Source: Cuniculiplasma divulgatum (GTDB taxonomy: Archaea; Thermoplasmatota; Thermoplasmata; Thermoplasmatales; Thermoplasmataceae). From it: a stretch of 32,000 nucleotides of DNA. Location of the stretch: positions 1,620,001 through 1,652,000 of the forward strand of contig NZ_LT671858.1 in assembly GCF_900083515.1 (NCBI RefSeq), written 5' to 3'. Positions 1,663-27,240 of the stretch are shown piece by piece. Below the pieces are notes generated by a model that saw only the letters and a list, made by a program, of their open reading frames with translations, did no database searches and was not told the DNA's origin. Made by a program: the position numbers and the translations under genes. Every line of letters starts with the position of its first letter. The stretch's first letter is position 1.

Positions 1663-1711
1663 TGAACCATAATCTTTATTTTACATTCTTACATAGTTTT
1701 TTGTTTTGATC

Positions 1712-2674
1712 TCAATCAACCATAGATTCCATCAGTTCAATATAAGGTTCTGATTCGCTTATTCTTACCTTCAGGTTAAGAGGTATTAGCATCTGTTCAT
1801 TTCCATGCCCAAAAGGTGCCATGGCTAGAGATGGTTTTGAATATTTTACCATGTATTCCCTTATTACATCTTCTATTGATGGTTTTCCTTCTCCTGAGGT
1901 TGACCTATTCTTAAATTCCCCAAATACAAATCCTGCAAGTTGATTAATCGTGCCATTGAGTATCATTATGTCCAGATATCTTTCTATGTCTACTGATCTT
2001 TCATTTGTATCCTCACAGAATAACACTTTATCAGTAAACTCCGGCATATAGGGTGTTCCAGTTAGAGATGAAAAGACTGACATGTTGGTTCCCATGGACC
2101 TTCCCTGGGCACTTCCTCCAACCACATACTTTACCAGTCTTTTTATATATGGCTTTAGGTCTGACAGTTCTCCTCTAAATATCTTAAACATTGTTTCCAG
2201 TTTTTCCCCTCGAAATTCTTCAGTGTCTGTGTCTGGCATAGGACCGTGAAATGTGACTAACCCAGAAATCTTATTTATGGCCATATGAAGATTTGTAATA
2301 TCACTGTACCCCATGAATATCTTTGGATTATCTCTTATTACATCAAAATCTAGAAATGGTAAAATCTGCCTTGCTCCATGGCCACCTCTTGCACAGAATA
2401 TTGCCTTTACCTTATGGTCCCTAAAAGCATCCATCAATTCTTTAGCACGCAACTCTGGATTTGCTGAATGATAAGTTTCCTGATTGAGCTTTTTCACGTT
2501 GATACCATATGTTACCTTATACCCAATTCTGGTTATTTCCTCAACTGATTGGTTTAAGGATATAATTTCAGGGTAACTTGACGGGGCTATTATTCTTATT
2601 TCATCCCCTATGTTCAGTCTAGCAGGCTTTATTACCTCTTTCCGTTCTCTGTAATTTTCAGAACTTCCTGTCAT
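1712..2674 (-). CDS. LD-carboxypeptidase (peptidase S66; LdcA/MccF family)
   Basis: 320-aa ORF. IRIIAPSS N-terminal strand, FMGYSDITNLH (nucleophile-Ser box G-x-S-D-x-T), FCEDTNE (acidic box) and APFGHGNEQMLIPLN (catalytic-His box). Convergent with the DUF1343 gene across a 49-nt gap. Confidence 0.85.
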   Translation of the reverse strand: MTGSSENYRERKEVIKPARLNIGDEIRIIAPSSYPEIISLNQSVEEITRIGYKVTYGINVKKLNQETYHSANPELRAKELMDAFRDHKVKAIFCARGGHGARQILPFLDFDVIRDNPKIFMGYSDITNLHMAINKISGLVTFHGPMPDTDTEEFRGEKLETMFKIFRGELSDLKPYIKRLVKYVVGGSAQGRSMGTNMSVFSSLTGTPYMPEFTDKVLFCEDTNERSVDIERYLDIMILNGTINQLAGFVFGEFKNRSTSGEGKPSIEDVIREYMVKYSKPSLAMAPFGHGNEQMLIPLNLKVRISESEPYIELMESMVD

Positions 2675-2913
2675 TTCATTCAGTTTGTAATATGGACTCC
2701 ATATAATAAATTTTTAAGTATCAAATATAAATTTTAGACTAATAGCTTGTGGAAATGGTTGGGATAATTTCAGAAACAGACACAGGTATCCAAGGAATCT
2801 TAACCAATAAAATTAATGTGAAAATTGAAAATAAATATTTGGGTAAATGTTGAAATATAAAAGAAAAGATTTGTGATGCCAGAGATCTTTATCTGACATA
2901 TTCATTTTAAAAA

Positions 2914-5900
2914 TTAGTTTTTAGGTATTTTCGGTTTTCTTATGAGATAAACACCTGCAACCGCAACAATAACTATCACAACTGCTATTATGGCAATTAT
3001 CTCATAGAGGTAGTTGCTGCTTGATGGTTTTACAACTTTTTCAGTTACGGTGTAATTGACGAAGGAGTATGCAGGTACGACAGAGCTATTTGATGTGCTT
3101 GCCTTGGCAACAATGCTTTCATTTGCCGTGACATAAGACCCGCTTCCTGAACTTGCATCCCCTACCGTAAATGTGAATACCGCAACACCAGCGCTATTTG
3201 TTGTCAGGTTATATCCACTGATTCCAACATTTACACCGGAAAGACTATATGATGTGATGTTAACATATGCTCCAGGTACCGCGGTTCCATTTTCGGTCAC
3301 TGTGAATGTTATTTTACCTGTTTGACCTGACGTGTAACTGGTACTTCCCAAGTTATATGACATAACCAGAGATGGATTTATTACGAATACATTGTTGTAT
3401 GCGTATCCCGCGCCTGTTTGGTTCTGGTTTCCCACAGATGCGACTGCAGTTATGTTAATCTCCTGATAATAAAGAGACATGGGATTTCCAGATGAACCAT
3501 ATGTTGTCATTAAGTTTGAAAGTGTCTTAGGAATTGTGAATGTGAAATTTGCACTGTTTCCAGTAGATGTGTTAAAAGTGAATGCACTGCTTGTAACACT
3601 TCCGGGTATTCCCGACATTACCACGGTTATGTTTGCATCTTTTACCTTTGTTCCAGTGCTATTAGTTACAGTGTACATGTATTTACCGCTGCTTCCTGCA
3701 GATAGATGGGTTTTGCCTGAATAAGTAGATGTAACTCTTAGATTATTCTTTTCGTTTGTGTTTATCAACTCTATGTTAAGATATGTTGATGTTGTAATTG
3801 TATGAATATCCTTAGTGGGTGGATTTACTGTTGCAGAAATGTTAACCTCTTCATCTGGCAGGTTTATTATGTTTCCGCTGCTTGATGTTGTTTGCAACAA
3901 AAGGTTGAGATTTTTGAATACTTCATACTTCCAAGTTGCTTGACCAGCTGAGTTTGTAGTAAGCTGGTTGGATGTTGTGTTGATCAACCCTTTTGCTATG
4001 GATGATACAGATACTCCAACTGTGGCACCCTGAACCGGTAAACCAGTTGTCTTATTAAGAACTGTGTATGTTATACTTCCACTATCTCCCTGCTTTTCTA
4101 CGAGAGCTCCTGTTAATTTCTCTTGTACCTGCATGTTATACTTATAGCTTACGGAAGTTGTTGTCTTGGCCTTGTTTACCTCCATAAGTGTGAAATAAAG
4201 GCTGAATAGAGAATTCGAGTTCTCTGTGGTAAAGTTAGAGAACTGGTTTGTTTGGAATGCATCTATCGTTGTTGTATATCCAAGGTTGATTAGAGTTGCT
4301 TCTTCTATGATTAATGTCTGAATCTCCTTTGAAATATGAATTGCCTGCTGATATGAGTCCGACTGCAACAATTCATTTGATAGGTTGGTTAGAAGAGTGG
4401 TCACCTGTTGACCGGAAAGATGTTTCCCATTAAAGTTCAACGATGTATATGGTCCTAGAGTACAACCTACACTGAAATAAGCTGGGGCATCATTTATGAA
4501 TAATGCGCATAGGTCTGCTGGATCTCCAGATTCTGTTCCCTGTCCATATTCTGCCATCTGATAGAAATTTCCTTTACCAGTGATGGTTTCGTATATGTTG
4601 TTAAACATTGTTGTGTAGGCTTCTTCTTTTATCACCGTCGTTATACCAAGGGCTGCGAATGAGGTTGACATTTCATTTGCAATTTCAGCAGCGCAAGGTG
4701 TCTCACTTCCTGGAGCTATCTGTATTTGAATTGTTACCTTCTTACCGTTATATGTCAGCGTTCCAGAATTGTTAGCCATTCCAGGTATGGCACTAATCAT
4801 TGATTTGGCTTTCTGCATATTATAAGTATACTGCGGGCTTGATGAATTGTACCAGAGCACATTGCATGGAGGTACGGTATTTGAAGATGGTGTTAAGAGT
4901 CCATCATATACTGTTCCATCTATTGTTTGGTATGGAGTTGCATAGCTCAATGCCTGTCTGAAGGTAGTAATGTTAAGAGGCGTTTCGTTTTCATTTATTC
5001 TAACTGCACAGAAAACCTGAGATGGCTTAATATAAATATATGCTCCTGGAGTTCCCTTAACCAGTGACAGGAAAGATGGTGTTACTGGTAGAAGATCCAG
5101 TTGTCCTTTGGTGAAGGCTGCTACCATTGAAGACTGAGAAGAATAGTATGGTTGATAGAATTCATATATCTTTGGAGAGTACTGTCTTAGGCCACTGCTC
5201 GCGTTGGCGTACTGTGCAAAGAAATGTGGATTTACATAAAACTTATCATATTGGTTTGGTACAATGCCACCTTGAGGCATACCGTATCCATTAACGACCA
5301 TAAATGGTCCGTCTCCGACCAATCCTGGAGCAGAACCAGTTGCGGTGTTCCATCCTAGATCCCAGCCATAATATCCATTTCCAGAAGACATTCCTGGAGT
5401 GTAATTGAATAATCCTTTAACACTCGTAAAGTCGTGATGTACCCAGATATTATATGGAAGAATATATGATTGCAGGGAGCTTGATTGAATTAACAGTGTT
5501 GGTTTTGGTACAAATACCTTTACTGAAAGATTTCCATTAGGAATTACATTAACTACTCCTGGCCATCCACCAAGGGCAGCCTCAAGCCTCCAGCTCAGAA
5601 CTACATCCCCAGACTGCAGATAATATTTCTTCATTACAGTCGGTGCATAGCTCGTGTATGTGTGCGTGAATGATACTCCTGTTGAATTTCTATAATCTAC
5701 CTTGTTCGAAAATGTATATGTTTGCGAAGCATTTGCCTTTGACCAGTCTGTCCACTGTGCATATGGTCTCAGATATATTGTGTACACATATGAGTAATTC
5801 GTCATTTTGCCAGTTTCAATGTCAAAGGTTTTATTGTTTGACGTAACGTGTGTCAATGTGTAGTTTGTGGCAAGCCATGGTTCTATTTGCCCATCAGGCA

Positions 5901-6195
5901 TTGTTTTGTAAAGACTCCCGTATACCAATTTGGCAATGAATAAATCGCCAAAAGTAATTCCGGTAAATGTATTCAGATCACCTATGGTACAGTCGAGACC
6001 ACAAGTAAATGTTCCATTAGTGTAACCGGGCTCTTCCATTGTAGTTGTTGGCATTTGCCATGCTGTTGATGATGAACCATCAGGCTGTACATTCAAATAA
6101 CTACTCTGACTAATACCAGTATTTGTAGATGATGTATTAATTGGTAAATTAGTTCCAAAGACGAAAAACGCGGAACCTACCATTAATAATACCAT
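2914..6195 (-). CDS. Extracellular solute-binding protein family 5 (Opp/Dpp-type peptide-binding) fused to Ig-like repeat region, C-terminal transmembrane anchor
   Basis: 1093-aa ORF. Short hydrophobic N-terminus (MVLLMVGSAFFVFG). The N-terminal roughly 650 aa have the look of archaeal SBP_bac_5 proteins, which is a weaker, gestalt call. The C-terminal third consists of Thr/Ser/Asn-rich beta-repeat modules, with LTTNSAGQATWKY and LTTNSAGVAVFTF recurring. It ends with a Ser-rich linker, the hydrophobic helix IIAIIAVVIVIVAVAGVYLI and the basic tail RKPKIPKN. I counted about 31 N-x-S/T sequons by hand. Confidence 0.7.
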   Translation of the reverse strand: MVLLMVGSAFFVFGTNLPINTSSTNTGISQSSYLNVQPDGSSSTAWQMPTTTMEEPGYTNGTFTCGLDCTIGDLNTFTGITFGDLFIAKLVYGSLYKTMPDGQIEPWLATNYTLTHVTSNNKTFDIETGKMTNYSYVYTIYLRPYAQWTDWSKANASQTYTFSNKVDYRNSTGVSFTHTYTSYAPTVMKKYYLQSGDVVLSWRLEAALGGWPGVVNVIPNGNLSVKVFVPKPTLLIQSSSLQSYILPYNIWVHHDFTSVKGLFNYTPGMSSGNGYYGWDLGWNTATGSAPGLVGDGPFMVVNGYGMPQGGIVPNQYDKFYVNPHFFAQYANASSGLRQYSPKIYEFYQPYYSSQSSMVAAFTKGQLDLLPVTPSFLSLVKGTPGAYIYIKPSQVFCAVRINENETPLNITTFRQALSYATPYQTIDGTVYDGLLTPSSNTVPPCNVLWYNSSSPQYTYNMQKAKSMISAIPGMANNSGTLTYNGKKVTIQIQIAPGSETPCAAEIANEMSTSFAALGITTVIKEEAYTTMFNNIYETITGKGNFYQMAEYGQGTESGDPADLCALFINDAPAYFSVGCTLGPYTSLNFNGKHLSGQQVTTLLTNLSNELLQSDSYQQAIHISKEIQTLIIEEATLINLGYTTTIDAFQTNQFSNFTTENSNSLFSLYFTLMEVNKAKTTTSVSYKYNMQVQEKLTGALVEKQGDSGSITYTVLNKTTGLPVQGATVGVSVSSIAKGLINTTSNQLTTNSAGQATWKYEVFKNLNLLLQTTSSSGNIINLPDEEVNISATVNPPTKDIHTITTSTYLNIELINTNEKNNLRVTSTYSGKTHLSAGSSGKYMYTVTNSTGTKVKDANITVVMSGIPGSVTSSAFTFNTSTGNSANFTFTIPKTLSNLMTTYGSSGNPMSLYYQEINITAVASVGNQNQTGAGYAYNNVFVINPSLVMSYNLGSTSYTSGQTGKITFTVTENGTAVPGAYVNITSYSLSGVNVGISGYNLTTNSAGVAVFTFTVGDASSGSGSYVTANESIVAKASTSNSSVVPAYSFVNYTVTEKVVKPSSSNYLYEIIAIIAVVIVIVAVAGVYLIRKPKIPKN

Positions 6196-6462
6196 AAATA
6201 CTGATAAAACAATTTTTTATTTATCATTAGTGTCGAATCTGATCTCTTATTAATAAACATTTCTATAATTTTTTTTCCGATATAAAAGTTTTAATAATAA
6301 AAAGTAATCCCCTACCGTGTTTTTGACAATAACACATATTTTCTGATTGTCATTATCAAATTATTTAAATGTTCTTAAACTAAAAATTTAATTGATCTGA
6401 TTTATTTCTTGTATCACTTATTGAGGTTCAAAAATTTAATTATCAGATTCCCATTTCTCACC

Positions 6463-7557
6463 ATGAAAATACATAGAGAAAGTGTGACTTCTTTTTGCTT
6501 TCTGGATTCAGAGGGTAAGATTGTATTATCAAAAAACGAAAATTTACCAGTAATTCCTGCTTCAAATATGAAATTGGTCACCTCCCTTTGTGCACTGGAG
6601 TCCCTAGGAACGGATTATATATTTACCACAAGTTTTTCTTCAGATAAAGATGATTTACACATTGATGGTGACCCATCTTTCTTTTTAAATATAGGTGAAT
6701 GCAGGAGAATCATTAAAGAATTAAAAATTGAAAAGGTAAACAACATTTATCTTGAAAAACCAAGAATCGATAGAGAGTTTTACAATGGTGATTGGGTTTA
6801 TGGTGATTCCAAGTACAGTTATCAGCCAAGAATATCTAATTTTTTTATTGGTGAGAATTGCAAAATTAAAAGTGGTTTCAAATTTGACAATAATGATTTC
6901 AACTATATTCATCAGAACGAGCAATTATTTCAACCAGTTAAAAACCCAGATAAACATTTAGTAGAAGCTTTTTCAGAGGAAAAAAATCTGAGGACAATAA
7001 GGAAAAGTTTGTCTTCTAATAATAATTTTGAAAAAGTTATTTCCCACAGTGCGAATATAAGAGATGTTCTAAGACATATTCTCTTCGAAAGCTGTAATTT
7101 TTATGCTGAAGTTATATTCAAGTATCTTTCAAGTAGCGAAAAATCGCTGGGCACATGGGAAAATTCTTCTAAATTTGTAATGGATTATATTTCCAGGATA
7201 AATGGATCTGAAAATGTAAGGATTAAAGATGGATCTGGACTGAGTAGAGAGAATTTCGTAACCACAGGATTTCTTTCTAACATGCTTTTATATGCTAAGA
7301 AAAATTTTGGAAACACCTTTATAGAACTAATGCCAACAATAGGTCAGGGAACACTGAGGAAACGCCTTATTTCTCTTGAAAAAAATGGAATTTATGCAAA
7401 AACTGGAACACTATCTGGAGTCTCTGCTCTTAGCGGATATATAAGTTCAATGGATACTTTTTTCTCTATAATTATTAATAATAGTCTTGATGAAGGATCA
7501 GTTAGGCAGATGGAAATAGACAGGATTCTATCGGAATTTATTGACAAATATAAATAG
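6463..7557 (+). CDS. D-alanyl-D-alanine carboxypeptidase/endopeptidase homolog (PBP4 type, peptidase S13), short form without signal peptide
   Basis: Active-site boxes PASNMKL (SxxK), DGSGLSRENF and AKTGTLSG (KTG). The ORF track starts at a TTG (6409). The first ATG is at 6463 (MKIHRESV...), which I prefer. Neither start gives a signal peptide. At about 364-382 aa it is shorter than the roughly 480 aa I recall for bacterial DacB. Confidence 0.75.
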   Translation: MKIHRESVTSFCFLDSEGKIVLSKNENLPVIPASNMKLVTSLCALESLGTDYIFTTSFSSDKDDLHIDGDPSFFLNIGECRRIIKELKIEKVNNIYLEKPRIDREFYNGDWVYGDSKYSYQPRISNFFIGENCKIKSGFKFDNNDFNYIHQNEQLFQPVKNPDKHLVEAFSEEKNLRTIRKSLSSNNNFEKVISHSANIRDVLRHILFESCNFYAEVIFKYLSSSEKSLGTWENSSKFVMDYISRINGSENVRIKDGSGLSRENFVTTGFLSNMLLYAKKNFGNTFIELMPTIGQGTLRKRLISLEKNGIYAKTGTLSGVSALSGYISSMDTFFSIIINNSLDEGSVRQMEIDRILSEFIDKYK

Positions 7558-7607
7558 AGAAACTATTTTTCAAATTGTTTGATTTACCACATATAGGCTG
7601 AATGATT

Positions 7608-8486
7608 TTACAGTAATAATGACATTATCTGAAATTTTCTTGTAATTCTGAAACCAAACCTTCCATATAGATGTGAAGCCTTTTCTGTAGTCCATAAAAA
7701 GTATGCATGTCTAATTCCATTTGATTTCATGTTTATTAGTGTAGCCGTCAGAAGCTTGCCTCCTATTCCCATTGAACGGTAATCCTCCAGAACCTCAAAA
7801 CATCCGAACCTCTCGCCTGGAGATGATTCAAATGGCCCTTCTCCACTTGCATACATGGAATAACCAACAATTTTATTATTTACTATAGCAATGGTGATCT
7901 GATCTAAACTTCCGTGCTTTATTACCCCATCGACTCTAAGGTAGCAATCATAGGGAAAGTTACTTCTTACCATTTTTAGGAGTTCTTCTGTTTCTTCAAT
8001 TTTTAGATTTCTGATTTCTGCTTTGCCTCCTTCTTTTTGAATATATTGGTGTTCCCCTATCTCTGCTTCCATTGCTAAAGCCTCTGATTCTGCAGTGAAA
8101 CCTACTTCGACAAGCGAATCGTATAGATCTGAATATTTCTCTCTATCAATGCCAGGAAAGAAATACCCCGGTGAAAAATTGGAATAAAATATACGCTGTA
8201 CTCCAACCTTTTTGGCCTGTTCTATCTGTTTTTTTAGAAGTTTTATAAGATCATCTTTCTTTGTATACCCGGCAGCAAAGATCCATGCTTTCTTTTCTGT
8301 ATCTTCATCTATACCATTTCTTGCACACAAGAGTGAGAATGCCCCCTCGTTTACCTGCTCACCTATTGGAACCACGTACTCATTTCTAAAATATTTCCTT
8401 TCCAGTTGAAATTGAGATGTTGGATCGAATTTATAAAACTCATTCCAGATTTCCAGAATTTTTTCCCTTTCTGTGATCTTGATCAT
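7608..8486 (-). CDS. GNAT family N-acyltransferase (C-terminal GNAT domain, N-terminal uncharacterised half)
   Basis: 292-aa ORF. Acyl-CoA binding motif A, YRSMGIGGKLLTATL, followed by HAYFLWTTEKASHLYGRFGF. Confidence 0.7.
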   Translation of the reverse strand: MIKITEREKILEIWNEFYKFDPTSQFQLERKYFRNEYVVPIGEQVNEGAFSLLCARNGIDEDTEKKAWIFAAGYTKKDDLIKLLKKQIEQAKKVGVQRIFYSNFSPGYFFPGIDREKYSDLYDSLVEVGFTAESEALAMEAEIGEHQYIQKEGGKAEIRNLKIEETEELLKMVRSNFPYDCYLRVDGVIKHGSLDQITIAIVNNKIVGYSMYASGEGPFESSPGERFGCFEVLEDYRSMGIGGKLLTATLINMKSNGIRHAYFLWTTEKASHLYGRFGFRITRKFQIMSLLL

Positions 8487-8686
8487 ATGTTTTGGTATTC
8501 GAAAGTGATTTAACTAGATTTTCCAAGCTTTAAGATCCTTTTTTTATAACTAATATTTTCGGACAGATTGCATTTGGTATATTACCATTCAAAGAAGAGA
8601 ATATTTTTAATTTGACTTATTTTAAAATTAGAGCTTAGACTCTTAACTTATTATGATATAAAAGCATTAAAGATGGGATTTGAATA

Positions 8687-8694
8687 TTTATAAA
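8687..8694 (+). promoter_or_regulatory. Archaeal TATA box (TTTATAAA) for the downstream Ntn amidotransferase gene; implies a leaderless or near-leaderless mRNA
   Basis: TTTATAAA ends 22 nt upstream of the ATG at 8716. That is the distance expected between a TATA box and the transcription start. No Shine-Dalgarno-like purine run lies in between. Confidence 0.5.
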
Positions 8695-8715
8695 GACCAT
8701 CAAGATATAGCTTGA

Positions 8716-9450
8716 ATGTGTCGCATGTTTTGTTTATCTGGAGATTTCTCTAAAGAATATAAAAAAATACTGGACTCCTTTATTGAGGTCACACGAAACG
8801 ATCCTCTCTCCGTAAACAGTGATGGTAGTTTAACATCACATGATCATGGATACGGATATGTAAGATACGATAGTTCTTCACTGGATTTTTTTAGATCACG
8901 AACTCCGGTGTTTGAATCTAATATTCCAGACTTCAGGTCAGGTCAGTTTATTATGCACGCCAGAAAAGCTGCCCCTGATGAACCAATTGGAACTCTAGAG
9001 AGTCATCCCCACTATGAAGTTGATGAAGATTATGAAGTATTTCTAGCGCACAATGGATGGTTTGATAAGAAAAAAATTGCGGTAGAGCTTGGTATTGAAA
9101 ACTTTACGAGATATGTTGATAGTCAATTATTTCTCAAATATATCCTTTCATTCAATGGAGAATTTAGAACTCGTTTGGAGAAAACAATATCCCTTGCAAA
9201 AGAGAAGGATTTGATCAGGGCAACCGCCAATTTGATGATTCTTTCAATAGATCGCAATACGCGAAATTCCAAGTTGTATTACTATACAGATGTAAAAGAA
9301 GGTAGTGAGTATAGTGATTATGTGAAGTTGTATCACGGAAATACAGACCTGTGGAATGGAGTTTTTTCTTCCAGTATTATAAAGTCCATTTCCTTCCCTA
9401 AAAATGTTACTATGAAAGAGGTGAGGAGAGGCGTTTTAAATGAGCTCTAA
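8716..9450 (+). CDS. Class II (Ntn-type) glutamine amidotransferase-like amidohydrolase (YafJ/EgtC-like)
   Basis: 244-aa ORF beginning Met-Cys (MCRMFCLSG), the nucleophile Cys2 arrangement of Ntn amidotransferases. HGYGY and LAHNGWF boxes are present. No synthase domain is attached. Confidence 0.7.
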   Translation: MCRMFCLSGDFSKEYKKILDSFIEVTRNDPLSVNSDGSLTSHDHGYGYVRYDSSSLDFFRSRTPVFESNIPDFRSGQFIMHARKAAPDEPIGTLESHPHYEVDEDYEVFLAHNGWFDKKKIAVELGIENFTRYVDSQLFLKYILSFNGEFRTRLEKTISLAKEKDLIRATANLMILSIDRNTRNSKLYYYTDVKEGSEYSDYVKLYHGNTDLWNGVFSSSIIKSISFPKNVTMKEVRRGVLNEL

Positions 9451-9463
9451 TTTTTCTTTTTTT
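9451..9463 (+). terminator. Oligo-T tract (TTTTTCTTTTTTT) immediately after the stop codon, archaeal intrinsic-terminator-like
   Basis: A T5-C-T7 run starts one nt after the TAA at 9448-9450. It is followed by a 210-nt AT-rich spacer before the next gene. Confidence 0.45.
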
Positions 9464-9673
9464 GTGAACTAATCTAAGAACGATGATAATATTTTAATAT
9501 GTTTTGTTTTTATAATAAATAGGCTAAATATTAACTTTCGAAATTTTACTTTCTCTAAAAATTGGCTAAAAATAATCCATAGACAAGAAATAGTAATTAT
9601 TTTTTAAACCAGTTGACTAAAACTAATACGTAGTTTCAATTACTAGAGAGAATAGTTAGCGTGGTGATAAATT

Positions 9674-10996
9674 TTGGAACTGAGTTTGGAATTTAGATCG
9701 TTGAATGAGATCGAAAGTCTAGTAAAAAGTAATGCAATTTCCCCATGCACGGTTTTAGAAAGACTCATGGAGAGAATTCACAAACTGGACACAAAACTCA
9801 AAAGTTACACAAGATTGAATTTAAATTCCCTTGAAGAATGCGCAAAAAGAGCGAAGTCGTCGGAAAATGTAATACCAGTTTCAGTCAAAGATTTATTTGA
9901 TACAAAAAATATTGAAACAAATTATGGATCAACGATTTATAGAGATCATTTTCCTTCCAAAGATTCCTCGGTTGTAGCAAATATCAAGAAAAGAAATGGT
10001 ATAGTTATAGGTAAAACTGTGACTCACGAGTTTGCCCTTGGAATAATTTCTTCACCAACTAAAAACCCATGGGATTTGAGAAGAATTCCTGGAGGTTCTA
10101 GTGGAGGGTCTGCTGCGGCTGTAGCAGCCGGATTGTCGGTATTTGCTACTGGAACTGATACTGGTGGATCTATTAGAATTCCAGCGGCGATGTGTGGTGT
10201 TACTGGATTTAAACCTACTTACAACCTCATACCCAGAGGTGGAATTTACCCAGAATCCTGGTCTCTGGACCATGCAGGGCCTATAACCAGATATGCCAGT
10301 GATTTGACCCTTGAACTGGAATTAATGACCAGAAAAAACTTTATTATTAAAGGAAGAGAAAGTAAAAAATTTAAAGTGGGTGTTGCCTGGGAAATGTTTG
10401 AATACTGTGAATCCAGTGTGAAAAAAGTCTCATTAGCTGCACTTGAGAAAATTAAAAAAGAGCTGAATATTGAATATATTCATGTTAAAGAAAAATGCCT
10501 GAGATTTAAGGAAATGAAGCACTTTCATGAGATTATTGATACAAGTGAAATTGCCCTAATTCACAGGGAGAACTATGAAAAATATCCAGATAGTTATTTA
10601 GATAGCTCTATTGAGCAGATAGAAGAAGGTATGCGGGTTAAAGCTGTGGATTATGTTAATGCTAAAAGATCCAGAGAGAAATACAGGGAACTATTAGACT
10701 CACAGTTTAAGACTCTCGATATAATTATAATTCCCACATTACAGGACGTGGCCCCTCTTACAGTTCACCAAAAGAAAAGAGAGGAAGTCGATGATATATC
10801 TGAAATTGATTTTCTTTCGCCTTTAAATTATTCAGGAAATCCTGCATTAACTATTCCAGTTGGGTTTTCACATGAACTTCCTGTTGGAATGCAGATAATC
10901 GGAAAGAATAATTCAGATTTAAGATGTATTGAGTTTGCTTCTCTTGTGCAGGATCTCACTGATTGGCATAAAGCAATTCCACAGGGCTTTTCCTGA
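9674..10996 (+). CDS. Amidase-signature family amidase (GatA-like fold, stand-alone)
   Basis: 440-aa ORF. It has the signature GGSSGGSAAAVAAG, GTDTGGSIRIPAAMCG and an upstream catalytic-Lys context, VSVKDLFDT. The ORF track start is a TTG, so the true start is uncertain. No gatB or gatC is adjacent. Confidence 0.85.
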   Translation: MELSLEFRSLNEIESLVKSNAISPCTVLERLMERIHKLDTKLKSYTRLNLNSLEECAKRAKSSENVIPVSVKDLFDTKNIETNYGSTIYRDHFPSKDSSVVANIKKRNGIVIGKTVTHEFALGIISSPTKNPWDLRRIPGGSSGGSAAAVAAGLSVFATGTDTGGSIRIPAAMCGVTGFKPTYNLIPRGGIYPESWSLDHAGPITRYASDLTLELELMTRKNFIIKGRESKKFKVGVAWEMFEYCESSVKKVSLAALEKIKKELNIEYIHVKEKCLRFKEMKHFHEIIDTSEIALIHRENYEKYPDSYLDSSIEQIEEGMRVKAVDYVNAKRSREKYRELLDSQFKTLDIIIIPTLQDVAPLTVHQKKREEVDDISEIDFLSPLNYSGNPALTIPVGFSHELPVGMQIIGKNNSDLRCIEFASLVQDLTDWHKAIPQGFS

Positions 10997-11229
10997 ACTA
11001 TCTTTGTCTGGCACGGTAATCTTAGAAACCACAAATGGCAATTGCATTGTAGGATTGGCTGTTACATAATATCTGTGGTATTGTATTTCTATGACCTTAT
11101 GAGTGATGCAATTAACTACTTCCTATATATTTCTATTTAAAATTAGTATAAAATTGAGCTTTTACTGATTTATAGCTATATCCTACTTATAAGAATATAT
11201 TTATCATCTCAAGTACATTACAGTACTTT

Positions 11230-12015
11230 GTGGAAATTGAAACCGTAATGGATCCTGATAAATTAAGAGGCATGATTCCGATAATTAAATCAGCATGGGG
11301 AATGAGCACCATGGATCAACTTGTGAAAGATATGATTGCTGCAATGAGGTTTCATGGTGGTTTGGCCCTAATTGCCATGGAAGATGAAAAAGCGGTAGGA
11401 ATGCATTTTAGTTTTACTGGAAGAAGAAACGGTAAGATATACCTTTACTCACATATGACTGGAGTTCTAAGTGATAAAAAGTATTCAGGTATTGGATTCC
11501 AGTTGAAAATGAGACAAAAAGAGTGGGCTATTGAGAATGGTTTTGATCTTATAGCATGGACATATGATCCACTCATGGATTTAAATGCCAATTTTAATAT
11601 TCACAAAATTGGAGCCATTTCAAGGACATATCTAAGAAATTTTTATGGAGATATGGAAGATTCGATCAATTACGGGATTCCAAGTGATAGGTTCGTGGCT
11701 GAATGGTGGATACTTGACGACAAAATAGAGCAAAAAAAACCATTGATTAGCGTCAATACAGTTGATGAAAATCAGGAACTGAATGCTAAAGAATTGCCAG
11801 ATGTGATTTCATTTAAAATCCCCGTGGATTTCTTATCTATAAAAAGAAATGATAAAGATACATCACTTAATATTAGATTATCAACCAGGGCTATGATAGA
11901 AGATTTGTTTTCTGACGGATTTATAGTGACTGATTTTAAAAGAGATTCCTCATCGTATATCATGGTTAGGCGTAATAAGGAAGATTTAGAATACCATAAA
12001 AATTTTTTTACCTGA
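11230..12015 (+). CDS. GNAT-fold acyltransferase; candidate D-amino acid N-succinyl(acyl)transferase by context
   Basis: 261-aa ORF. GNAT motif-A-like YSGIGFQLKMRQKEWAIENGF. GTG start at 11230, alternative ATG at 11248. A TATA-like ATATTTAT at 11197-11204 lies about 26 nt upstream of the GTG. Convergent with the M20/racemase operon. Confidence 0.55.
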   Translation: MEIETVMDPDKLRGMIPIIKSAWGMSTMDQLVKDMIAAMRFHGGLALIAMEDEKAVGMHFSFTGRRNGKIYLYSHMTGVLSDKKYSGIGFQLKMRQKEWAIENGFDLIAWTYDPLMDLNANFNIHKIGAISRTYLRNFYGDMEDSINYGIPSDRFVAEWWILDDKIEQKKPLISVNTVDENQELNAKELPDVISFKIPVDFLSIKRNDKDTSLNIRLSTRAMIEDLFSDGFIVTDFKRDSSSYIMVRRNKEDLEYHKNFFT

Positions 12016-12061
12016 CTTCGCTACACCAACTATTAATTGGTTTTGAGATTAAATTTTGTTA

Positions 12062-13171
12062 TCACATGGTCATTATCAGGCCTAAAAGGGCTGAACGTTC
12101 TGGAAGAGTATCAAGGAGCAGATATTCATTTTCTGAATGTGCACCATCACCGACAGCTCCAAGACCATCGATTACTGGACAGTATTTAGAGCAGATATTT
12201 CCATCGCTTGCTCCAGAAACTGAAACTTCATCAATATTTAATCCAATATTGCTGGCAAGTAGCTTTACTTTTTGAAAAAGATCTTTTGTTAAATCTGTTC
12301 TGGTCATGGGTTCTCTCATTCTGTAGGTAACTGATGTTGTAGAACCTGCCAGCCCTGTTTTTAATGATTTTAGAAATAATAACACATTTTCTGCAGATTC
12401 TTCAGAGCTGTATCTAACATCTATTCCAATCTCACAGAAATCAGGTATCACATTGGTTCTTGTGCCACCATGGATCGTACCTATGTTAATTAACGTACCA
12501 TCATTAATACCCGCGGAAAAGTTTTTAATTTGCTCAATTATGGAACTCATTGCATTTATTGCATTAATACCTTTCTTTGGGTCCAGTCCTGCATGCGCCG
12601 CCTTTCCAGTTATTTTCAGCATTATTGTTCCAACACCTTTTCTTTCGGTTTTGAGATTTCCATTAAGAGATGCTTCCATGACCAGAGCAAATTTAGATCT
12701 CTTTGCCTCTTCCTCGATTATTGATCTGGAGAAGGCTGAGCCTATTTCCTCATCTGACGTAATTAGTAAAACAACTTTGTTTTTTATTGTTTTATTTCTA
12801 ACAAGATATTCCATGGCAAAGATAGTCTGCACCAGGCCTCCTTTCATATCAAAGACACCGGGTCCATATGCTTTTCCACTTTCAATCCTGAATGGATTTT
12901 TCTTTGTGGTTCCCTCATCAAATACGGTGTCATAATGAGTTAACAACAAAATCTGTTCCTGTGCGTCAGGGTTGAATATACATCTTATAATGTTTCCAGC
13001 AGATTCTGACCTAATTAATTCACACTTTAACCCCGTTATATGTTCTATTATATCCAGAAGGTGATTTGCAAATTTATCCAGAAGTGGTTTATTTACTGAA
13101 GGAGTTTCCATATTGACAAAATCCTCCAGCATTTGTATCATATCCATCTTTCTGCTTTTCATATAATCCAT
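12062..13171 (-). CDS. M20 family metallopeptidase (carboxypeptidase G2 / N-acyl-L-amino acid amidohydrolase type); candidate N-succinyl-L-amino acid desuccinylase
   Basis: 369-aa ORF. THYDTV (His/Asp metal ligands), GPGVFDMKGG, ITSDEEIGS and a C-terminal GDGAHSENEY. Its start lies 5 nt downstream of the stop of the enolase-superfamily gene, on the same strand. Confidence 0.8.
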   Translation of the reverse strand: MDYMKSRKMDMIQMLEDFVNMETPSVNKPLLDKFANHLLDIIEHITGLKCELIRSESAGNIIRCIFNPDAQEQILLLTHYDTVFDEGTTKKNPFRIESGKAYGPGVFDMKGGLVQTIFAMEYLVRNKTIKNKVVLLITSDEEIGSAFSRSIIEEEAKRSKFALVMEASLNGNLKTERKGVGTIMLKITGKAAHAGLDPKKGINAINAMSSIIEQIKNFSAGINDGTLINIGTIHGGTRTNVIPDFCEIGIDVRYSSEESAENVLLFLKSLKTGLAGSTTSVTYRMREPMTRTDLTKDLFQKVKLLASNIGLNIDEVSVSGASDGNICSKYCPVIDGLGAVGDGAHSENEYLLLDTLPERSALLGLIMTM

Positions 13172-13176
13172 TATGT

Positions 13177-14265
13177 CTATGATAACACCCCTTCTTCAAC
13201 TTTAAATTGTGTTAGGACTGATTCATTGATTTTGACACCTATTCCGGGAGAATTGAATGGTTTTATAATTCCATCATTCATTTCAAACAGCCTATCCACT
13301 ATATCCTGACTAAAATATCTTTCGTTTGGAGATGTGTCCCCTGGGTAGTCTATGAGTTCGCTGGAAGCCATTGCTATGTTGAATGATCTTCCTATGCCAG
13401 TTTCAAGCATACCACCAATCCATGCATGTCCCTTATTATTACTGGCTATTTTTGCTATAAGATTTGAATTATAGAGTCCCCCTACCCTTCCTGGCTTAAT
13501 GTTCACAACTCTACATGCACCTATTTCAAAAGCATTTTCAGCAATTTCAGGGGATGTAATAGATTCATCCAGACATATGGGTGTTGAAAGTATTTTAGCC
13601 AATTTCGAATGGTATATTATATCATCATGGTAAAGAGGTTGCTCAAGGTATATCAAATCAAATTTGTCAATTTTTTCAAGCGTCTTAAAATCCTTTACTG
13701 TATAATCACTGTTCGCGTCCGCACTGAGAGGTATATCAGGAAAGTGGTCCCTTATTGGGGCCAATATTGAAACTTCTCCTCCTTTCCTGATTTTTACCTT
13801 GATCCTTTTGTAACCCTTATCCAGCGATTGCTGAATTTTCTCAAGTGTTACATTTATTTTATCAATACCAAGTGATATTCCAGCGTTTGCATAACCTCTT
13901 GGTTTTTCATTTATAAATTCAAAAAGGGGTTTTTCTGCCACTTTAGAATGATAGTCATACAGCAACATCTCCATGGCTGCTTTTGCCATATTGTTCCCCC
14001 TGATAAAATTTGAAATCTCATTAAACTTCTCCGGAGATGGCAAATTTTGAATCAATTTCACAAGATAATTCTTAATTATATGAAATGCTGTTGTATTATC
14101 CTCTGGTCCATAGAAAGGATCTTCACTTGTGATTAGTTCTGAGAATGCTTTAATACCATCATGATTAAGTTCAAAAATGATCACATCCTTATCCAGAGTA
14201 GTTCCAAAACTTGTGGTAAATGGAGACTTCATTGGAATCTTCAACCTGTAATATTTAAGGTTCAT
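13177..14265 (-). CDS. Enolase-superfamily enzyme of the N-succinylamino acid racemase / o-succinylbenzoate synthase (NSAR/OSBS) subfamily
   Basis: KRIKVKI (KxK acid/base box), SADANSDY, YLEQPL and CLDES (three metal ligands), VNIKPGRVGG (second catalytic Lys) and GGMLETGIGRS. The last two boxes match my memory of NSAR/OSBS rather than dipeptide epimerases. The ORF track start is a TTG at 14304. I prefer the ATG at 14265 (MNLKYYRLKIPMKSPF). Confidence 0.75.
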   Translation of the reverse strand: MNLKYYRLKIPMKSPFTTSFGTTLDKDVIIFELNHDGIKAFSELITSEDPFYGPEDNTTAFHIIKNYLVKLIQNLPSPEKFNEISNFIRGNNMAKAAMEMLLYDYHSKVAEKPLFEFINEKPRGYANAGISLGIDKINVTLEKIQQSLDKGYKRIKVKIRKGGEVSILAPIRDHFPDIPLSADANSDYTVKDFKTLEKIDKFDLIYLEQPLYHDDIIYHSKLAKILSTPICLDESITSPEIAENAFEIGACRVVNIKPGRVGGLYNSNLIAKIASNNKGHAWIGGMLETGIGRSFNIAMASSELIDYPGDTSPNERYFSQDIVDRLFEMNDGIIKPFNSPGIGVKINESVLTQFKVEEGVLS

Positions 14266-14449
14266 ACAAATTCGATTGATGTGATATAGATAAATATTTT
14301 GCAATGTTCTCTAGGAAATTGTAAGATTTCAACAATGTCGATTATATATTTATATTAATTTATTAACATTAACTTAAGAAATACTAGCCTTCGGGCCTAA
14401 TTTTAAATTTGTAGCAAACTTAATTTAATCAGGAATAATGTGAAGAATC

Positions 14450-15559
14450 ATGTATAGTGAGGTTAAAAGAGGTTCAGTAGAAAATAGACAATTGCTTATA
14501 GATTCTCTTGATTCAGTTTTTCGACCAGGAAATGTTCAGGGCTCATCAATGGCACTTGAATTCCCCCATCTTTTTTCTGATGATAATATAGAAAACACCT
14601 TCTATATCGATGATGGCAAAATTCCTGTTAGCCAGGCAAGTGTACTTTTATCAAAAACATGCATAAACGGAGCCATACTTGACGTTGCTTCACTTGGTTC
14701 AGTATCCACAATGAAGGATCATAGACACAAGGGTTTATCCACAAAAATCATAAACAGAATGATTGAAGTTTACAGGAATTCTGAAATAGACCTTCTCCTG
14801 GTTTCAGGGGAGATTGAACTGTATACTAAGCTCGGTTGTGTGAAAACAGGATCGGATTATTCAGCAGTAATAGAAAAAATTGGAAAAAATGAAGATATAG
14901 AACAAAATGGAAAATATTTTGTCAAACTGTCCTCACCGGAGGAAAGAATTGCTAATGCAGTAGAATACCACAGGATTCATATTAAAGAAAAGTTCAGGTA
15001 CATGAGAACTTCTAAAGAATTCAGTATCTTGTTAAACGCTCTATGGTTTAAGAGAAATGGATTTCGGATGGACCTGTTTGAAATCAGAAATGAGAATGAA
15101 ACTATATTAGCTTACGTTGTAGCATTCAAGAAAATAGGAGATTCAAAGTTAAAGATAATGGAATATGCAGGTTCTCGAAAGGCCATAGCCAGTTGTCTTC
15201 TCGATATAATGGCTAAAATGGAATGTAGTGAAATTAGATTCAGAGTAAACGAGGAGGATTTTAATTTTATTGAGGAGCTCTCCAGATTAAATGTTAAGCT
15301 TGTTCAGGAAAACTCACAGGGAACTTTAAAGATTCTGAATTCCCAGTCCATCTTCAGAAAATTAAGACCGCTTATAATAGAAAGAATAGGAGAATATTTT
15401 GAATTTAGGGAAATAGGCAATGAAAAGTGGTTATTTATATCTGGTTCATTAAAGAAGGAGATTAATGGATATGATGATTTAACTCACTTCATATTTGATA
15501 AGAAGGAGGGTTCTCTGGGTATTCCCCTGATGTTTACCGATGATTTGAATTATATATGA
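14450..15559 (+). CDS. GNAT family N-acetyltransferase, Eis/COG4552-like architecture (GNAT plus C-terminal extension)
   Basis: 369-aa ORF. Motif A, HRHKGLSTKIINRMIEVY, sits in the N-terminal third. The long C-terminal region is of the size seen in Eis-like enzymes. Divergent from the racemase gene across a 145-185-nt spacer. Confidence 0.55.
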   Translation: MYSEVKRGSVENRQLLIDSLDSVFRPGNVQGSSMALEFPHLFSDDNIENTFYIDDGKIPVSQASVLLSKTCINGAILDVASLGSVSTMKDHRHKGLSTKIINRMIEVYRNSEIDLLLVSGEIELYTKLGCVKTGSDYSAVIEKIGKNEDIEQNGKYFVKLSSPEERIANAVEYHRIHIKEKFRYMRTSKEFSILLNALWFKRNGFRMDLFEIRNENETILAYVVAFKKIGDSKLKIMEYAGSRKAIASCLLDIMAKMECSEIRFRVNEEDFNFIEELSRLNVKLVQENSQGTLKILNSQSIFRKLRPLIIERIGEYFEFREIGNEKWLFISGSLKKEINGYDDLTHFIFDKKEGSLGIPLMFTDDLNYI

Positions 15560-17417: not shown

Positions 17418-18158
17418 ATGAAAAGTGTTTATAACCCTTTTACATTTATAATACAGATGCTAGGAAATGAAGGTAACTTGAAAACACTGAGTTGCGAAAA
17501 TATTCTTGGAAGGGAATTAAATGATGTGGAAAAAAAGTATGCACCTCAGAAGCTCTTTGTAAAGGGATCAATTCCTTTACCCATATATAAACCTAGGATA
17601 TCAGTTGTTGGAACCAGGAAGCCCTCTGAAGTTGGAATAAATATTACCAAGAACTTGGTCAGATTGTTAGTTAAAAATGGTATTGCTATATTTAGTGGGT
17701 TGGCACGAGGAATAGATACTGTTGCGCACAAAACAGCAATAGAAGAAAATGGTGATACCATTGCGGTGCTGGGTACTCCAATTAATCGTTATTACCCACC
17801 TGAAAATAAAGAATTACAAGAACTCATGGAAAGAAGACAGCTGGTTATAAGCCAATTTGACATGGGTCACTATACTAACAAAAGGGACTTTTTAACGAGA
17901 AACAGACTAATGGCACTTCTCTCTGATATTACTATAATAATGGAGGCAGGTGAAGTAAGTGGCTCAATTTCTCAGGGATGGGAGACACTAAGATTGGGTA
18001 GAAAGCTTTACATATGTTCTCCTACTTTTGAGAATGAAAGCCTTGAATGGCCAAGGGAAATGCAAAAATATGGTGCAAACGAACTTGATATAGGTAATGT
18101 TGAACTGATATTAGAAGAAACATCAAATTATGTTAAGGCAAGTATGGATGATCAGTAA
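17418..18158 (+). CDS. DprA/Smf-like Rossmann (SLOG superfamily) protein, minimal single-domain form; ShosA-like
   Basis: 246-aa ORF. ISVVGTRKPS, SGLARGIDTVAHKTAIEENGDTIAVLGTPINRYYPPENKEL, LVISQF and FLTRNRLMALLSD match the DprA core. It lacks the N-terminal SAM and C-terminal winged-helix extensions of long DprAs. Confidence 0.8.
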   Translation: MKSVYNPFTFIIQMLGNEGNLKTLSCENILGRELNDVEKKYAPQKLFVKGSIPLPIYKPRISVVGTRKPSEVGINITKNLVRLLVKNGIAIFSGLARGIDTVAHKTAIEENGDTIAVLGTPINRYYPPENKELQELMERRQLVISQFDMGHYTNKRDFLTRNRLMALLSDITIIMEAGEVSGSISQGWETLRLGRKLYICSPTFENESLEWPREMQKYGANELDIGNVELILEETSNYVKASMDDQ

Positions 18159-18879
18159 CAAAAATGAACTTCATTATATTTCCATACTCTCATATCTGCC
18201 AAAAAAATACCTTCAAAGTATAACAGATAAAGACACTCTTAAGGATGCAATAAAATCAATTGATATAATGAGAACCTTGAAACAAAACCTTCATGTGATA
18301 TCTCAAGGAAAGAGCATTCCCATCACAGAATGGTTGACTCATTATATCACACATGCAAATCAAGATAATTTAGGTTTAGACTTTGATAATTTTTTTAGGT
18401 CAGACACTGTATTAATCCCTGTCCCCAGAAGCATTATTATTAAAAAGGATACTCTTTGGGTTCCTAAAGACATCGCTACTACTTTCAGCAAAAAGATGAA
18501 CTTAAAAATGATCCCTCTTCTAACGAGATTAACTCCAGTTAATGTTTCTTCTAAAAGTTTACCTAATAATAGACCTAAACCACTCGATCACTTTAATTCC
18601 TTATCATTATCAAAAGGCATGGATAGTCAAATTAGAAACATAGTAACAAATAAATTGGGAATTATTCTTGTGGATGACGTGATAACGAGAGGTTCCACTT
18701 TAATGGGATGTTACTGGAAAATTTTGGAAATTTTTAAATCGTATCAGTATTACCCACAAATATCGGGCTTTTGTGCAATGAGAACTATTAGTAATAGTCT
18801 TGAGTTTAGGAAACCAATTGACCCCCACGAAGGAGATATTACATATAGAGATTCAAATGGTGATACCTTGAGAACGTGA
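18130..18879 (+). CDS. ComF-like phosphoribosyltransferase-domain protein; ShosT-like
   Basis: 249-aa ORF. Canonical PRPP-binding loop LGIILVDDVITRGSTLMG, preceded by a ComF-like LIPVPRS box. There is no N-terminal Cys4 zinc finger. It overlaps the DprA-like gene by 29 nt, or by 11 nt if the ATG at 18148 is used. Confidence 0.75.
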   Translation: MLRQVWMISNKNELHYISILSYLPKKYLQSITDKDTLKDAIKSIDIMRTLKQNLHVISQGKSIPITEWLTHYITHANQDNLGLDFDNFFRSDTVLIPVPRSIIIKKDTLWVPKDIATTFSKKMNLKMIPLLTRLTPVNVSSKSLPNNRPKPLDHFNSLSLSKGMDSQIRNIVTNKLGIILVDDVITRGSTLMGCYWKILEIFKSYQYYPQISGFCAMRTISNSLEFRKPIDPHEGDITYRDSNGDTLRT

Positions 18880-26694: not shown

Positions 26695-27166
26695 GTTGGT
26701 ATCTGTTTTTTTATTAGGAGATAATATTGATACTGACAATATTGCCCCTGGAGGATACCTGCATCTGTCCATAGAGAAGCAGGTTGAGCACTGTCTTGAA
26801 TCAATAATAGATGGTTTTTCTAACAAAGTTACAAAGGGAGATATAATAGTTGCTGGGGAAAACTTTGGTACTGGTTCCTCAAGAGAACAGGCGCCGGTTC
26901 TTCTAAAGACTATTGGGATTCAGGCCGTGTTTGCCAGAAGTTTTTCAAGATTGTTTTTCAGGAACGCAATCAATGTTGGACTGTACCCGGGAATATATAA
27001 AGGTAATATTCCATTTTCAAACGAAGAAAAAGTGAATATTGATTTCGAACATTGCAAAATAAAAGGTGATCTTGGTATTTTGCCATTCGATTCACCTAAA
27101 GGAATTCTGAAGGAAATACTTGATTCGGGCGGGATGGTTAATTACGCGAGAAAAATTATAGAATGA
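26678..27166 (+). CDS. Aconitase-family dehydratase small subunit (LeuD/HacB type)
   Basis: 162-aa ORF. LLGDNIDTDNIAPGGYL and AGENFGTGSSREQAP. It overlaps the large-subunit stop. Alternative in-frame starts are a GTG at 26687 and a TTG at 26696. Confidence 0.88.
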   Translation: MCQVNKLVSVFLLGDNIDTDNIAPGGYLHLSIEKQVEHCLESIIDGFSNKVTKGDIIVAGENFGTGSSREQAPVLLKTIGIQAVFARSFSRLFFRNAINVGLYPGIYKGNIPFSNEEKVNIDFEHCKIKGDLGILPFDSPKGILKEILDSGGMVNYARKIIE

Positions 27167-27240
27167 GTATATGAGAGGTCAATGGTTTTAGATTGCATTA
27201 TGTGAATAAGGAGAAACCAAATATTGAAATGATCTCTATG

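Follow-up and report, generated by a model that had tools for sequence, protein, structure and literature searches.

A predicted pathway for conversion of D- to L-amino acids in the wall-less archaeon Cuniculiplasma divulgatum

Gene organization of the locus

A stretch of 32,000 nucleotides of the Cuniculiplasma divulgatum genome (contig NZ_LT671858.1, positions 1,620,001 to 1,652,000; hereafter the window) was analysed with respect to three adjacent genes. They encode a GNAT-fold protein, an M20 metallo-amidohydrolase, and an enolase-superfamily enzyme of the subfamily that comprises N-succinylamino acid racemases (NSAR) and o-succinylbenzoate synthases (OSBS). The host is a wall-less, acidophilic archaeon. 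The gene content of the window is of the Thermoplasmata type (Kae1-Bud32 fusion, ribosomal protein S6e, HTH_10 regulator, DUF3198), and its GC content is approximately 36%. A previous sequence-only reading had proposed that the three genes form a complete module for irreversible D- to L-amino acid conversion. The three open reading frames (ORFs) on which that proposal was built are all present in the ORF list of the window, and the features of the locus are as follows.

11230-12015, plus strand: GNAT-fold acyl-CoA N-acyltransferase, 261 amino acids, GTG start; proposed D-amino acid N-succinyl- (or N-acyl-) transferase
12016-12061, no strand: spacer of 46 bp between convergent stop codons, read from the sequence
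12062-13171, minus strand: M20A (carboxypeptidase-G2-like) dinuclear metallo-amidohydrolase, 369 amino acids; proposed L-specific N-acyl-amino acid deacylase
13172-13176, minus strand: spacer of 5 nt (ACATA) from enolase stop to M20 start, read from the sequence
13177-14265, minus strand: NSAR/OSBS-subfamily enolase-superfamily enzyme, 362 amino acids; proposed N-succinylamino acid racemase
14266-14449, no strand: AT-rich intergenic region that separates the divergent enolase and Eis-like GNAT genes, read from the sequence

The three genes are clustered over positions 11230-14265 and separated by 46 bp and 5 nt. The stop codon of the enolase gene (13177-13179) and the ATG of the M20 gene (13169-13171) on the same strand are separated by exactly the 5 nt that had been noted before, and this short spacer implies that the two genes would be co-transcribed. 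The 261-amino-acid gene ends at 12015 on the plus strand and the M20 stop lies at 12062; the convergent arrangement described in the sequence-only reading was thereby recovered. The longest enolase ORF (13177-14304) encodes 375 amino acids from a TTG at 14304. Alignments and gene calls in relatives begin at the ATG at 14265, which is probably the true start. The region 14266-14449 would probably contain the promoter of the enolase-M20 transcript. An antisense ORF of 160 amino acids within the M20 gene (12453-12935) was rejected as spurious; its translation is of low complexity and it is not called in relatives.

Subfamily assignment and active site of the enolase

By sequence, the enolase is assigned to the NSAR/OSBS subfamily (MLE subgroup of the enolase superfamily). 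It matches the Pfam domains MR_MLE_N and MR_MLE_C and reaches 376.3 bits on the NCBIfam model TIGR01928 (NSAR/OSBS-type, 'menC_lowGC_arch'; cut-off 200.65). On the NCBIfam models for L-Ala-D/L-Glu epimerase, DgcA, muconate cycloisomerase and other OSBS types it stays far below the cut-offs. The boxes KVK, SADANS, LEQPL, LDESI, NIKPGRVGG and GGMLETGIGR, on which the sequence-only reading had relied, were all found in the translation. In the numbering of the 362-amino-acid protein, K156/K158, D183, E208, D233, K257 and R260 are all present. The lysines and the acidic residues align with their equivalents in the solved enzymes of Enterococcus (1WUE), Listeria (1WUF), Thermus (2ZC8) and Deinococcus (1R0M). 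R260 is located in NIKPGR, three residues past K257, and is the equivalent of the second-shell arginine R266 of the Amycolatopsis enzyme. R266 is reported as a conserved residue of NSAR/OSBS-subfamily enzymes and has been described as a pre-adaptation for racemase activity (10.1101/2022.03.03.481873; PMC12006748).

Together with the Amycolatopsis NSAR (1SJA), the four structures named above are the best solved relatives of the enolase (223-257 bits). They are promiscuous NSAR/OSBS enzymes which share with it 35-38% identity, the same KxK, D-E-D and K set and the R266-equivalent arginine.

Placement in a phylogeny had been proposed as a check in the sequence-only reading. In a small, distance-based neighbour-joining tree the enolase fell inside the NSAR/OSBS subfamily, which was split from enolases of 25-27% identity with 100% bootstrap support. 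The Thermoplasmata enolases (that of the window, a relative 87% identical to it, and those of Ferroplasma and Oxyplasma) formed one clade within the subfamily at 99.7% bootstrap support; the tree gave no resolved placement of this clade relative to the bacterial ones.

Membership in the subfamily does not by itself define the reaction. The enolase is 35-38% identical to racemase-type and OSBS-type solved enzymes alike, so that its physiological reaction is not assignable by similarity, and TIGR01928 does not separate NSAR from OSBS because an operon-type NSAR of Anoxybacillus also scores 408 bits on this model. As far as sequence data go, gene context is the sole discriminator between racemase and OSBS.

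The convergent gene encodes a GNAT-fold protein

The 261-amino-acid protein has no match in Pfam, and by sequence it matches none of the solved structures. An AlphaFold2 model was built on 24 relatives (mean pLDDT 86.7). In Foldseek searches the first approximately 160 residues of the model matched GNAT acetyltransferases, among them Naa50 and AAC(6'), with a probability of 1.0 and target TM-scores of approximately 0.75-0.85. Despite the missing Pfam match, the model thus confirms the GNAT fold that had been ascribed to this gene. In the CoA-pyrophosphate motif K84-x-x-G87-x-G89, K84 and G89 are invariant among the 24 relatives and G87 is conserved in at least 90% of them.

A C-terminal extension of approximately 100 residues is common to the whole GNAT-like family, which comprised 4510 clusters at 50% identity in a profile search. 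Bacterial members pass the Pfam model Acetyltransf_1 with 29-34 bits (cut-off 20.7). The window protein is 33-35% identical over 236-256 amino acids to the operon acyltransferases of an Anoxybacillus sp. and of B. thuringiensis (E-values of 1e-45 to 1e-44; loci L069 and L023, respectively). Since it is homologous to the GNAT protein of bacterial M20-GNAT-NSAR operons, the prediction that the convergent gene encodes the acyltransferase of the pathway is well supported.

In the sources, family members are labelled 'predicted GNAT superfamily acetyltransferase', 'GNAT family N-acetyltransferase' or 'chorismate synthase'. The last of these labels is carried by many members at JGI (P0032, P0070, P0084, P0094, P0433 and others). 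It looks wrong because fold and gene context contradict it, and it looks like a propagated misannotation.

The hydrolase is of the M20A type

The M20 gene product matches Pfam Peptidase_M20 (PF01546) and M20_dimer (PF07687). Its best solved relative is carboxypeptidase G2 (124 bits), a member of the M20A group that includes the 'glutamate carboxypeptidase' models. The two-domain architecture is kept, and the motifs HxDTV, GPGxxDxKGG, DEE, xE and GxHS align with those of carboxypeptidase G2, including the metal ligands and the general-base glutamate. The alignment is nevertheless visibly divergent, and the protein scores below the cut-off of every NCBIfam equivalog model. The best of these was 'hydrolase PRK07338' (239 bits vs 357), and 'glutamate carboxypeptidase' was also matched. 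TIGR01891, the model matched by the M20 proteins of the bacterial operons, was absent from its best 25 NCBIfam matches.

Gene context in bacteria and in Thermoplasmatales

To describe the bacterial gene context of the GNAT-like family, a Bacillales sub-group chosen by motif and names was scanned with a 5-sequence alignment and one genome per species, and 80 loci were kept. These are biased towards Bacillales and include no Geobacillus, for which Anoxybacillus and other Bacillales served as proxy. An NSAR/OSBS gene was directly adjacent to the GNAT-like gene in 63 of the 80 species (60 downstream on the same strand, three upstream). An M20 gene was located directly upstream of the GNAT-like gene in 42 of the 80 loci, and the full order M20-GNAT-NSAR was found in 38. 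The operons of Anoxybacillus sp. and B. thuringiensis were inspected gene by gene: the M20 protein belongs to TIGR01891 ('amidohydrolase'), the GNAT-like protein to Acetyltransf_1, and the NSAR reaches 408 bits on TIGR01928.

In Ammoniphilus sp. (locus L072, 8830-9888 and 9963-11036) the GNAT-like gene is followed downstream by two tandem NSAR/OSBS-subfamily genes, which encode proteins with 41% and 38% identity to the window enolase. In Peribacillus, an M20A gene has an enolase-superfamily neighbour. This candidate was discarded: with 120 bits on TIGR01928 the neighbour stays below the cut-off and does not belong to the NSAR/OSBS type, and the case is therefore uninformative on M20A-NSAR linkage in bacteria.

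Two close relatives (L001 and L002) show the same synteny of the trio as the window, with GNAT-like proteins 79% identical to that of the window. In the Thermoplasmatales sequence CP060531.1 the orthologues of the NSAR (53% identity), M20A (41%) and GNAT-like (46%) proteins are encoded together; the M20A gene directly follows the NSAR gene and the GNAT-like gene is divergent. Ferroplasma acidiphilum has an M20A orthologue (54% identity) whose start is overlapped by the NSAR gene. Oxyplasma carries its NSAR and GNAT-like genes as a divergent pair. One metagenomic relative has an M20D (CpsA-like) gene that overlaps the GNAT-like gene following it. Picrophilus has the M20A gene alone.

By these sequence comparisons the M20A gene is a conserved partner of the predicted racemase gene within Thermoplasmatales. 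This also sets the hydrolase apart from carboxypeptidase G2, which is not known to have an NSAR partner. The three families recur together in rearranged layouts within Thermoplasmatales and across bacterial species. Such recurrence is the usual signature of functional coupling and argues for a functional linkage rather than chance or inherited synteny.

In Ferroplasma acidiphilum (CP133600.1; locus L086, 8144-8641) a small canonical GNAT of 165 amino acids (Acetyltransf_1) converges on the NSAR-M20A pair. It occupies the place of the 261-amino-acid gene of Cuniculiplasma and may be an acyltransferase replacement.

A predicted pathway for D- to L-amino acid conversion

A thioester-driven conversion of D- to L-amino acids was reportedly described for Geobacillus kaustophilus by Sakai and co-workers in 2006 (Biochemistry 45:4455). 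Its genes encode a GNAT succinyltransferase, an NSAR/OSBS enzyme and an M20 L-desuccinylase (bioRxiv 10.1101/2022.03.03.481873), and the same pathway has been predicted from operons of Lysinibacillus and Roseiflexus (10.1101/2022.03.03.481873; PMC12006748). We consider it likely that the three genes of the window encode a pathway of this kind. Homology to the bacterial operons and recurrence in Thermoplasmatales thus support the module of acyltransferase, NSAR and M20 enzyme that was proposed in the sequence-only reading.

In the first step, for which homology and gene context are the basis, the GNAT-fold enzyme (11230-12015) would N-acylate a free D-amino acid with succinyl-CoA or another short acyl-CoA as the presumed donor. 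In the second step the enolase would bind the carboxylate of the N-acyl-amino acid to a Mg2+ ion held by D183, E208 and D233. Two-base proton transfer by K158 and K257 would then racemise the alpha-carbon via a Mg2+-stabilised enolate, with R260 in the second shell; the active-site machinery for this is present in the protein, from which racemase activity is predicted. In the third step the presumably co-transcribed M20A enzyme (12062-13171) would hydrolyse the L-isomer alone, a presumed stereoselectivity, to L-amino acid and succinate and thereby pull the equilibrium. The net reaction would be D-amino acid + succinyl-CoA + H2O -> L-amino acid + succinate + CoA, for a presumed range of amino acids, and it would be irreversible because the thioester is spent.

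The resemblance to the G. kaustophilus-type operon extends to several features. The same three roles lie side by side. The window racemase is of the same NSAR/OSBS subfamily and approximately 40% identical to operon-type NSARs of Bacillales. The acyltransferase falls into the same divergent GNAT family, including the C-terminal extension of approximately 100 amino acids (as compared with the Bacillales proxies), and the hydrolase is likewise an M20/M20_dimer enzyme. Among the differences, the host is an archaeon of the Thermoplasmatales, the predicted racemases of Thermoplasmata form a clade of their own, and the bacterial hydrolase is a TIGR01891 protein of the M20D type. In bacteria, moreover, the genes are co-directional in the order M20-GNAT-NSAR, whereas in the window the NSAR gene is followed by that for M20A, and the GNAT gene is convergent.

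The DgcN-DgcA pathway for N-acetyl-D-glutamate follows a related logic, in that a D-amino acid is acylated, the N-acyl form is racemised by an enolase-superfamily enzyme and the product is deacylated. It employs a different enolase subfamily and a different acyltransferase family, and DgcA itself was rejected as an identity of the window enolase (72.1 bits on NF042940, cut-off 400).

A number of observations weigh against the proposed pathway or limit how closely it can be equated with that of G. kaustophilus. The window hydrolase is an M20A protein and, by sequence, not orthologous to the TIGR01891 (M20D) amidohydrolase encoded in the bacterial operons: it aligns with the M20 protein of the Anoxybacillus operon with 30% identity over just 91 amino acids, and none of the 80 bacterial loci contained an M20A gene at a distance of up to 8 kb from the GNAT-like gene. 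The three genes do not form one co-directional operon; the GNAT-like gene lies on the strand opposite the enolase-M20 pair, which leaves its co-regulation with the pair putative. Acidiplasma and a Thermoplasma sp. have the GNAT-like gene on its own. The likeness to G. kaustophilus is measured through Bacillales proxies rather than by direct comparison with the G. kaustophilus proteins. Racemase, acyltransferase and hydrolase activities are all predictions, and neither the acyl donor (succinyl or acetyl) nor the amino acid specificity is readable from the sequence. Finally, menaquinone synthesis might be an additional function of the enolase or take the place of the racemase role, as menaquinone-7 (MK-7) is the main quinone of C. 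divulgatum and of Oxyplasma (PMC11349054). The claim in the sequence-only reading that the gene set is that of G. kaustophilus therefore stands for superfamilies and roles; it does not for the hydrolase, which is not orthologous, or for a single co-directional operon. Because the M20A enzyme is non-orthologous, the gene set matches the bacterial operons by superfamily and role rather than gene for gene.

The type of pathway is known; its archaeal host, the archaeal clade of racemases and the M20A enzyme in place of an M20D hydrolase would be new. The literature consulted, with subscription papers outside its coverage, contained nothing that links NSAR with archaea. If correct, the prediction would extend to archaea a pathway known only from bacteria, mainly Bacillales. 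It would also mean that a different M20 subfamily can take over the hydrolase step, i.e., a non-orthologous replacement that conserves the logic of the pathway. It would offer organotrophic acidophiles that lack a cell wall a way to use the D-amino acids of bacterial necromass. Thermo- and acid-stable pairs of NSAR and L-acylase would be of practical interest for the dynamic kinetic resolution of amino acids.

Alternative functions

An unlikely alternative is that the enolase is bifunctional, acting as racemase in the module and catalysing in addition the OSBS step required for MK-7, as has been proposed for the NSAR/OSBS enzymes of Lysinibacillus and Roseiflexus. Many enzymes of the subfamily catalyse both reactions, and bifunctionality has been predicted where the gene of a D-to-L operon coincides with a need for OSBS (10.1101/2022.03.03.481873; PMC12006748). 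MK-7 is the main quinone of the organism (PMC11349054), and the enolase scores about equally on the OSBS-type enzymes 1WUE and 1WUF and on the racemases 2ZC8 and 1R0M. On the other hand, OSBS depends on 2-succinyl-6-hydroxy-2,4-cyclohexadiene-1-carboxylate (SHCHC) supplied by MenF, MenD and MenH, and Zhi et al. 2014 (PMC3914697) assign the classical men pathway, as far as archaea are concerned, to Halobacteriaceae.

A scan of the window ORFs of at least 100 amino acids detected none of the men-pathway domains Chorismate_bind, TPP_enzyme, ECH, AMP-binding and UbiA; ORFs outside the scan were short ones within or overlapping longer genes. No men gene adjoins the enolase gene in the Thermoplasmatales contexts examined either (L001 and L002, Oxyplasma, Ferroplasma and CP060531.1). 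The sequence-only reading had taken the lack of nearby men genes as an argument against a pure OSBS role. Their absence from the scanned ORFs was borne out; since the organism makes MK-7, it is insufficient to rule out an additional OSBS role, and the argument is weakened to that extent.

In Zhi et al. 2014 (PMC3914697), non-halophile archaeal 'MenC' proteins are described as a separate clade. The table of that study lists Crenarchaeota and Korarchaeota with MenC and without MenF or MenB, and Deinococcus-Thermus with 12 MenC, 1 MenF and 0 MenB next to a futalosine pathway. The Thermus and Deinococcus relatives of the window enolase are named N-acylamino acid racemases in the PDB. No statement on how Thermoplasmatales make menaquinone was found in the literature consulted.

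It is rather improbable that the genes follow the same logic with other chemistry, i.e., with N-acetyl or other N-acyl groups or with a single substrate such as N-acyl-glutamate, as in a system of N-acylamino acid racemase (NAAAR) and aminoacylase type. The hydrolase is related to carboxypeptidase G2 and to the 'glutamate carboxypeptidase' models, whose substrates are N-acyl-L-glutamates, and the identity of the GNAT-like protein to the Bacillales enzymes is just 33-35%. NSAR/OSBS enzymes accept N-acetyl substrates, several PDB entries being named N-acylamino acid racemase, and the N-acetyl-D-glutamate pathway with its NCBIfam model for the racemase DgcA provides a known analogue. The enolase itself scores only 72 bits on the DgcA model, against a cut-off of 400, and the GNAT-like protein falls into the family of the operon acyltransferase, which has been called a succinyltransferase (10.1101/2022.03.03.481873). 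The sequence does not fix the acyl group either way.

Automatic annotation suggests that the enolase is MenC, catalysing OSBS only, so that its adjacency to the M20 and GNAT-like genes would be meaningless. We regard this as very unlikely. TIGR01928 is an 'equivalog' model named o-succinylbenzoate synthase, the organism makes menaquinone (PMC11349054), and the Ferroplasma 'menC' has been so interpreted in print, its high expression being taken as evidence of menaquinone-based electron shuttling (PMC6289977). The same model, however, scores the operon-type NSAR of Anoxybacillus with 408 bits. Chance does not explain an adjacency which recurs in rearranged form in Thermoplasmatales and, for the GNAT-like family, in 63 of 80 bacterial species, and the classical men pathway is placed outside Thermoplasmatales in PMC3914697. 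For D- to L-amino acid conversion, the reading we prefer, this would mean a systematic annotation error, in which the TIGR01928 'equivalog' labels such archaeal enzymes as o-succinylbenzoate synthase (MenC, a vitamin K2 gene).

Genes for LD-carboxypeptidase, DD-peptidase and NamZ, which accompany dipeptide epimerases in bacteria, are present in the window, yet the idea of an L-Ala-D/L-Glu (dipeptide) epimerase, with which the enolase would act on peptidoglycan peptides that these neighbours release, is effectively refuted and was rejected on the family model scores (59.5 bits on NF011708 with a cut-off of 343 and 45.1 on NF041118 with a cut-off of 500, vs 376 on TIGR01928), with PDB dipeptide epimerases at 70-75 bits vs 223-257 for NSAR/OSBS enzymes and arginine at R260 where dipeptide epimerases are reported to have lysine (PMC12006748). 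The sequence-only reading had named this assignment as one that would overturn it.

Neighbouring genes

Upstream of the three genes the window contains a run of genes of muropeptide type:

562-1662: NamZ exo-N-acetylmuramidase
1712-2674: S66 LD-carboxypeptidase
2914-6195: SBP_bac_5 protein, 1093 amino acids
6409-7557: S13 DD-peptidase
7608-8486: GNAT
8716-9450: Cys2 Ntn-type protein, starting with Met-Cys
9674-10996: amidase (amidase-signature enzyme)

The DD- and LD-peptidases mentioned in the sequence-only reading are real, namely the S13 and the S66 enzyme of this run. In a crude hydropathy scan the SBP_bac_5 protein showed a hydrophobic segment at the N-terminus and a membrane anchor at the C-terminus, and its neighbours looked cytoplasmic. 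Synteny of the run (562-10996) was observed in the close relatives L001 and L002 only; in Ferroplasma, Oxyplasma and CP060531.1 it does not lie beside the racemase gene.

By analogy, the run resembles bacterial muropeptide recycling and, hypothetically, would supply D-Ala and D-Glu. One possible though doubtful extension is that the predicted conversion module represents the last step of a muropeptide-scavenging island (approximately 562-14265) in a wall-less archaeon. The membrane-anchored peptide-binding protein would capture fragments of bacterial cell walls, and cytoplasmic NamZ, LD-carboxypeptidase, S13 DD-peptidase, Ntn-type hydrolase and amidase would dismantle them. The GNAT/NSAR/M20A trio would then turn the freed D-Ala, D-Glu or other D-amino acids to the L-form as a putative stand-in for conventional amino acid racemases. 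Scavenging of such D-amino acids from bacterial debris as substrates of the module is plausible but unproven. The link of the peptidases to the module is likewise plausible; it is drawn from proximity and holds only in the Cuniculiplasma lineage. In the literature consulted, again with subscription papers outside its coverage, nothing was found that links Cuniculiplasma with D-amino acids or peptidoglycan turnover. If true, Thermoplasmatales of acid-mine biofilms would feed on bacterial peptidoglycan by means of a scavenging pathway composed of bacterial-type parts, a racemase of an archaeal clade and a recruited M20A hydrolase.

On the other side of the cluster, an Eis-like GNAT of 369 amino acids (Acetyltransf_9; 14450-15559, plus strand) is encoded divergently from the enolase gene across the AT-rich spacer of 184 bp, and this layout is kept in L001 and L002. 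A better-scoring Eis-like gene is located approximately 2 kb upstream of the Anoxybacillus operon (L069, 3792-4976); no similarity between its product and the Eis-like GNAT of the window was detectable at an E-value of 1e-8.

Further downstream, PADLOC identified an overlapping Shosta anti-phage gene pair consisting of ShosA (17418-18158, plus strand; DprA-like, 230 bits, E-value 8e-69) and its partner ShosT (18130-18879, plus strand; 56 bits, E-value 1e-15). The pair is present in the window and in L002 and absent from L001 at the same spot, between genes for an aldo-keto reductase and a spermidine synthase. The pair has the appearance of a small, variable archaeal defence islet.

The region 25456-29396 encodes large and small subunits of the aconitase family, a family III CoA-transferase and an HMGL-like lyase beside an MFS transporter, and may represent a small set for utilisation of an organic acid (citramalate- or itaconate-like). 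In CP060531.1, aconitase-type and MFS genes adjoin the NSAR trio.

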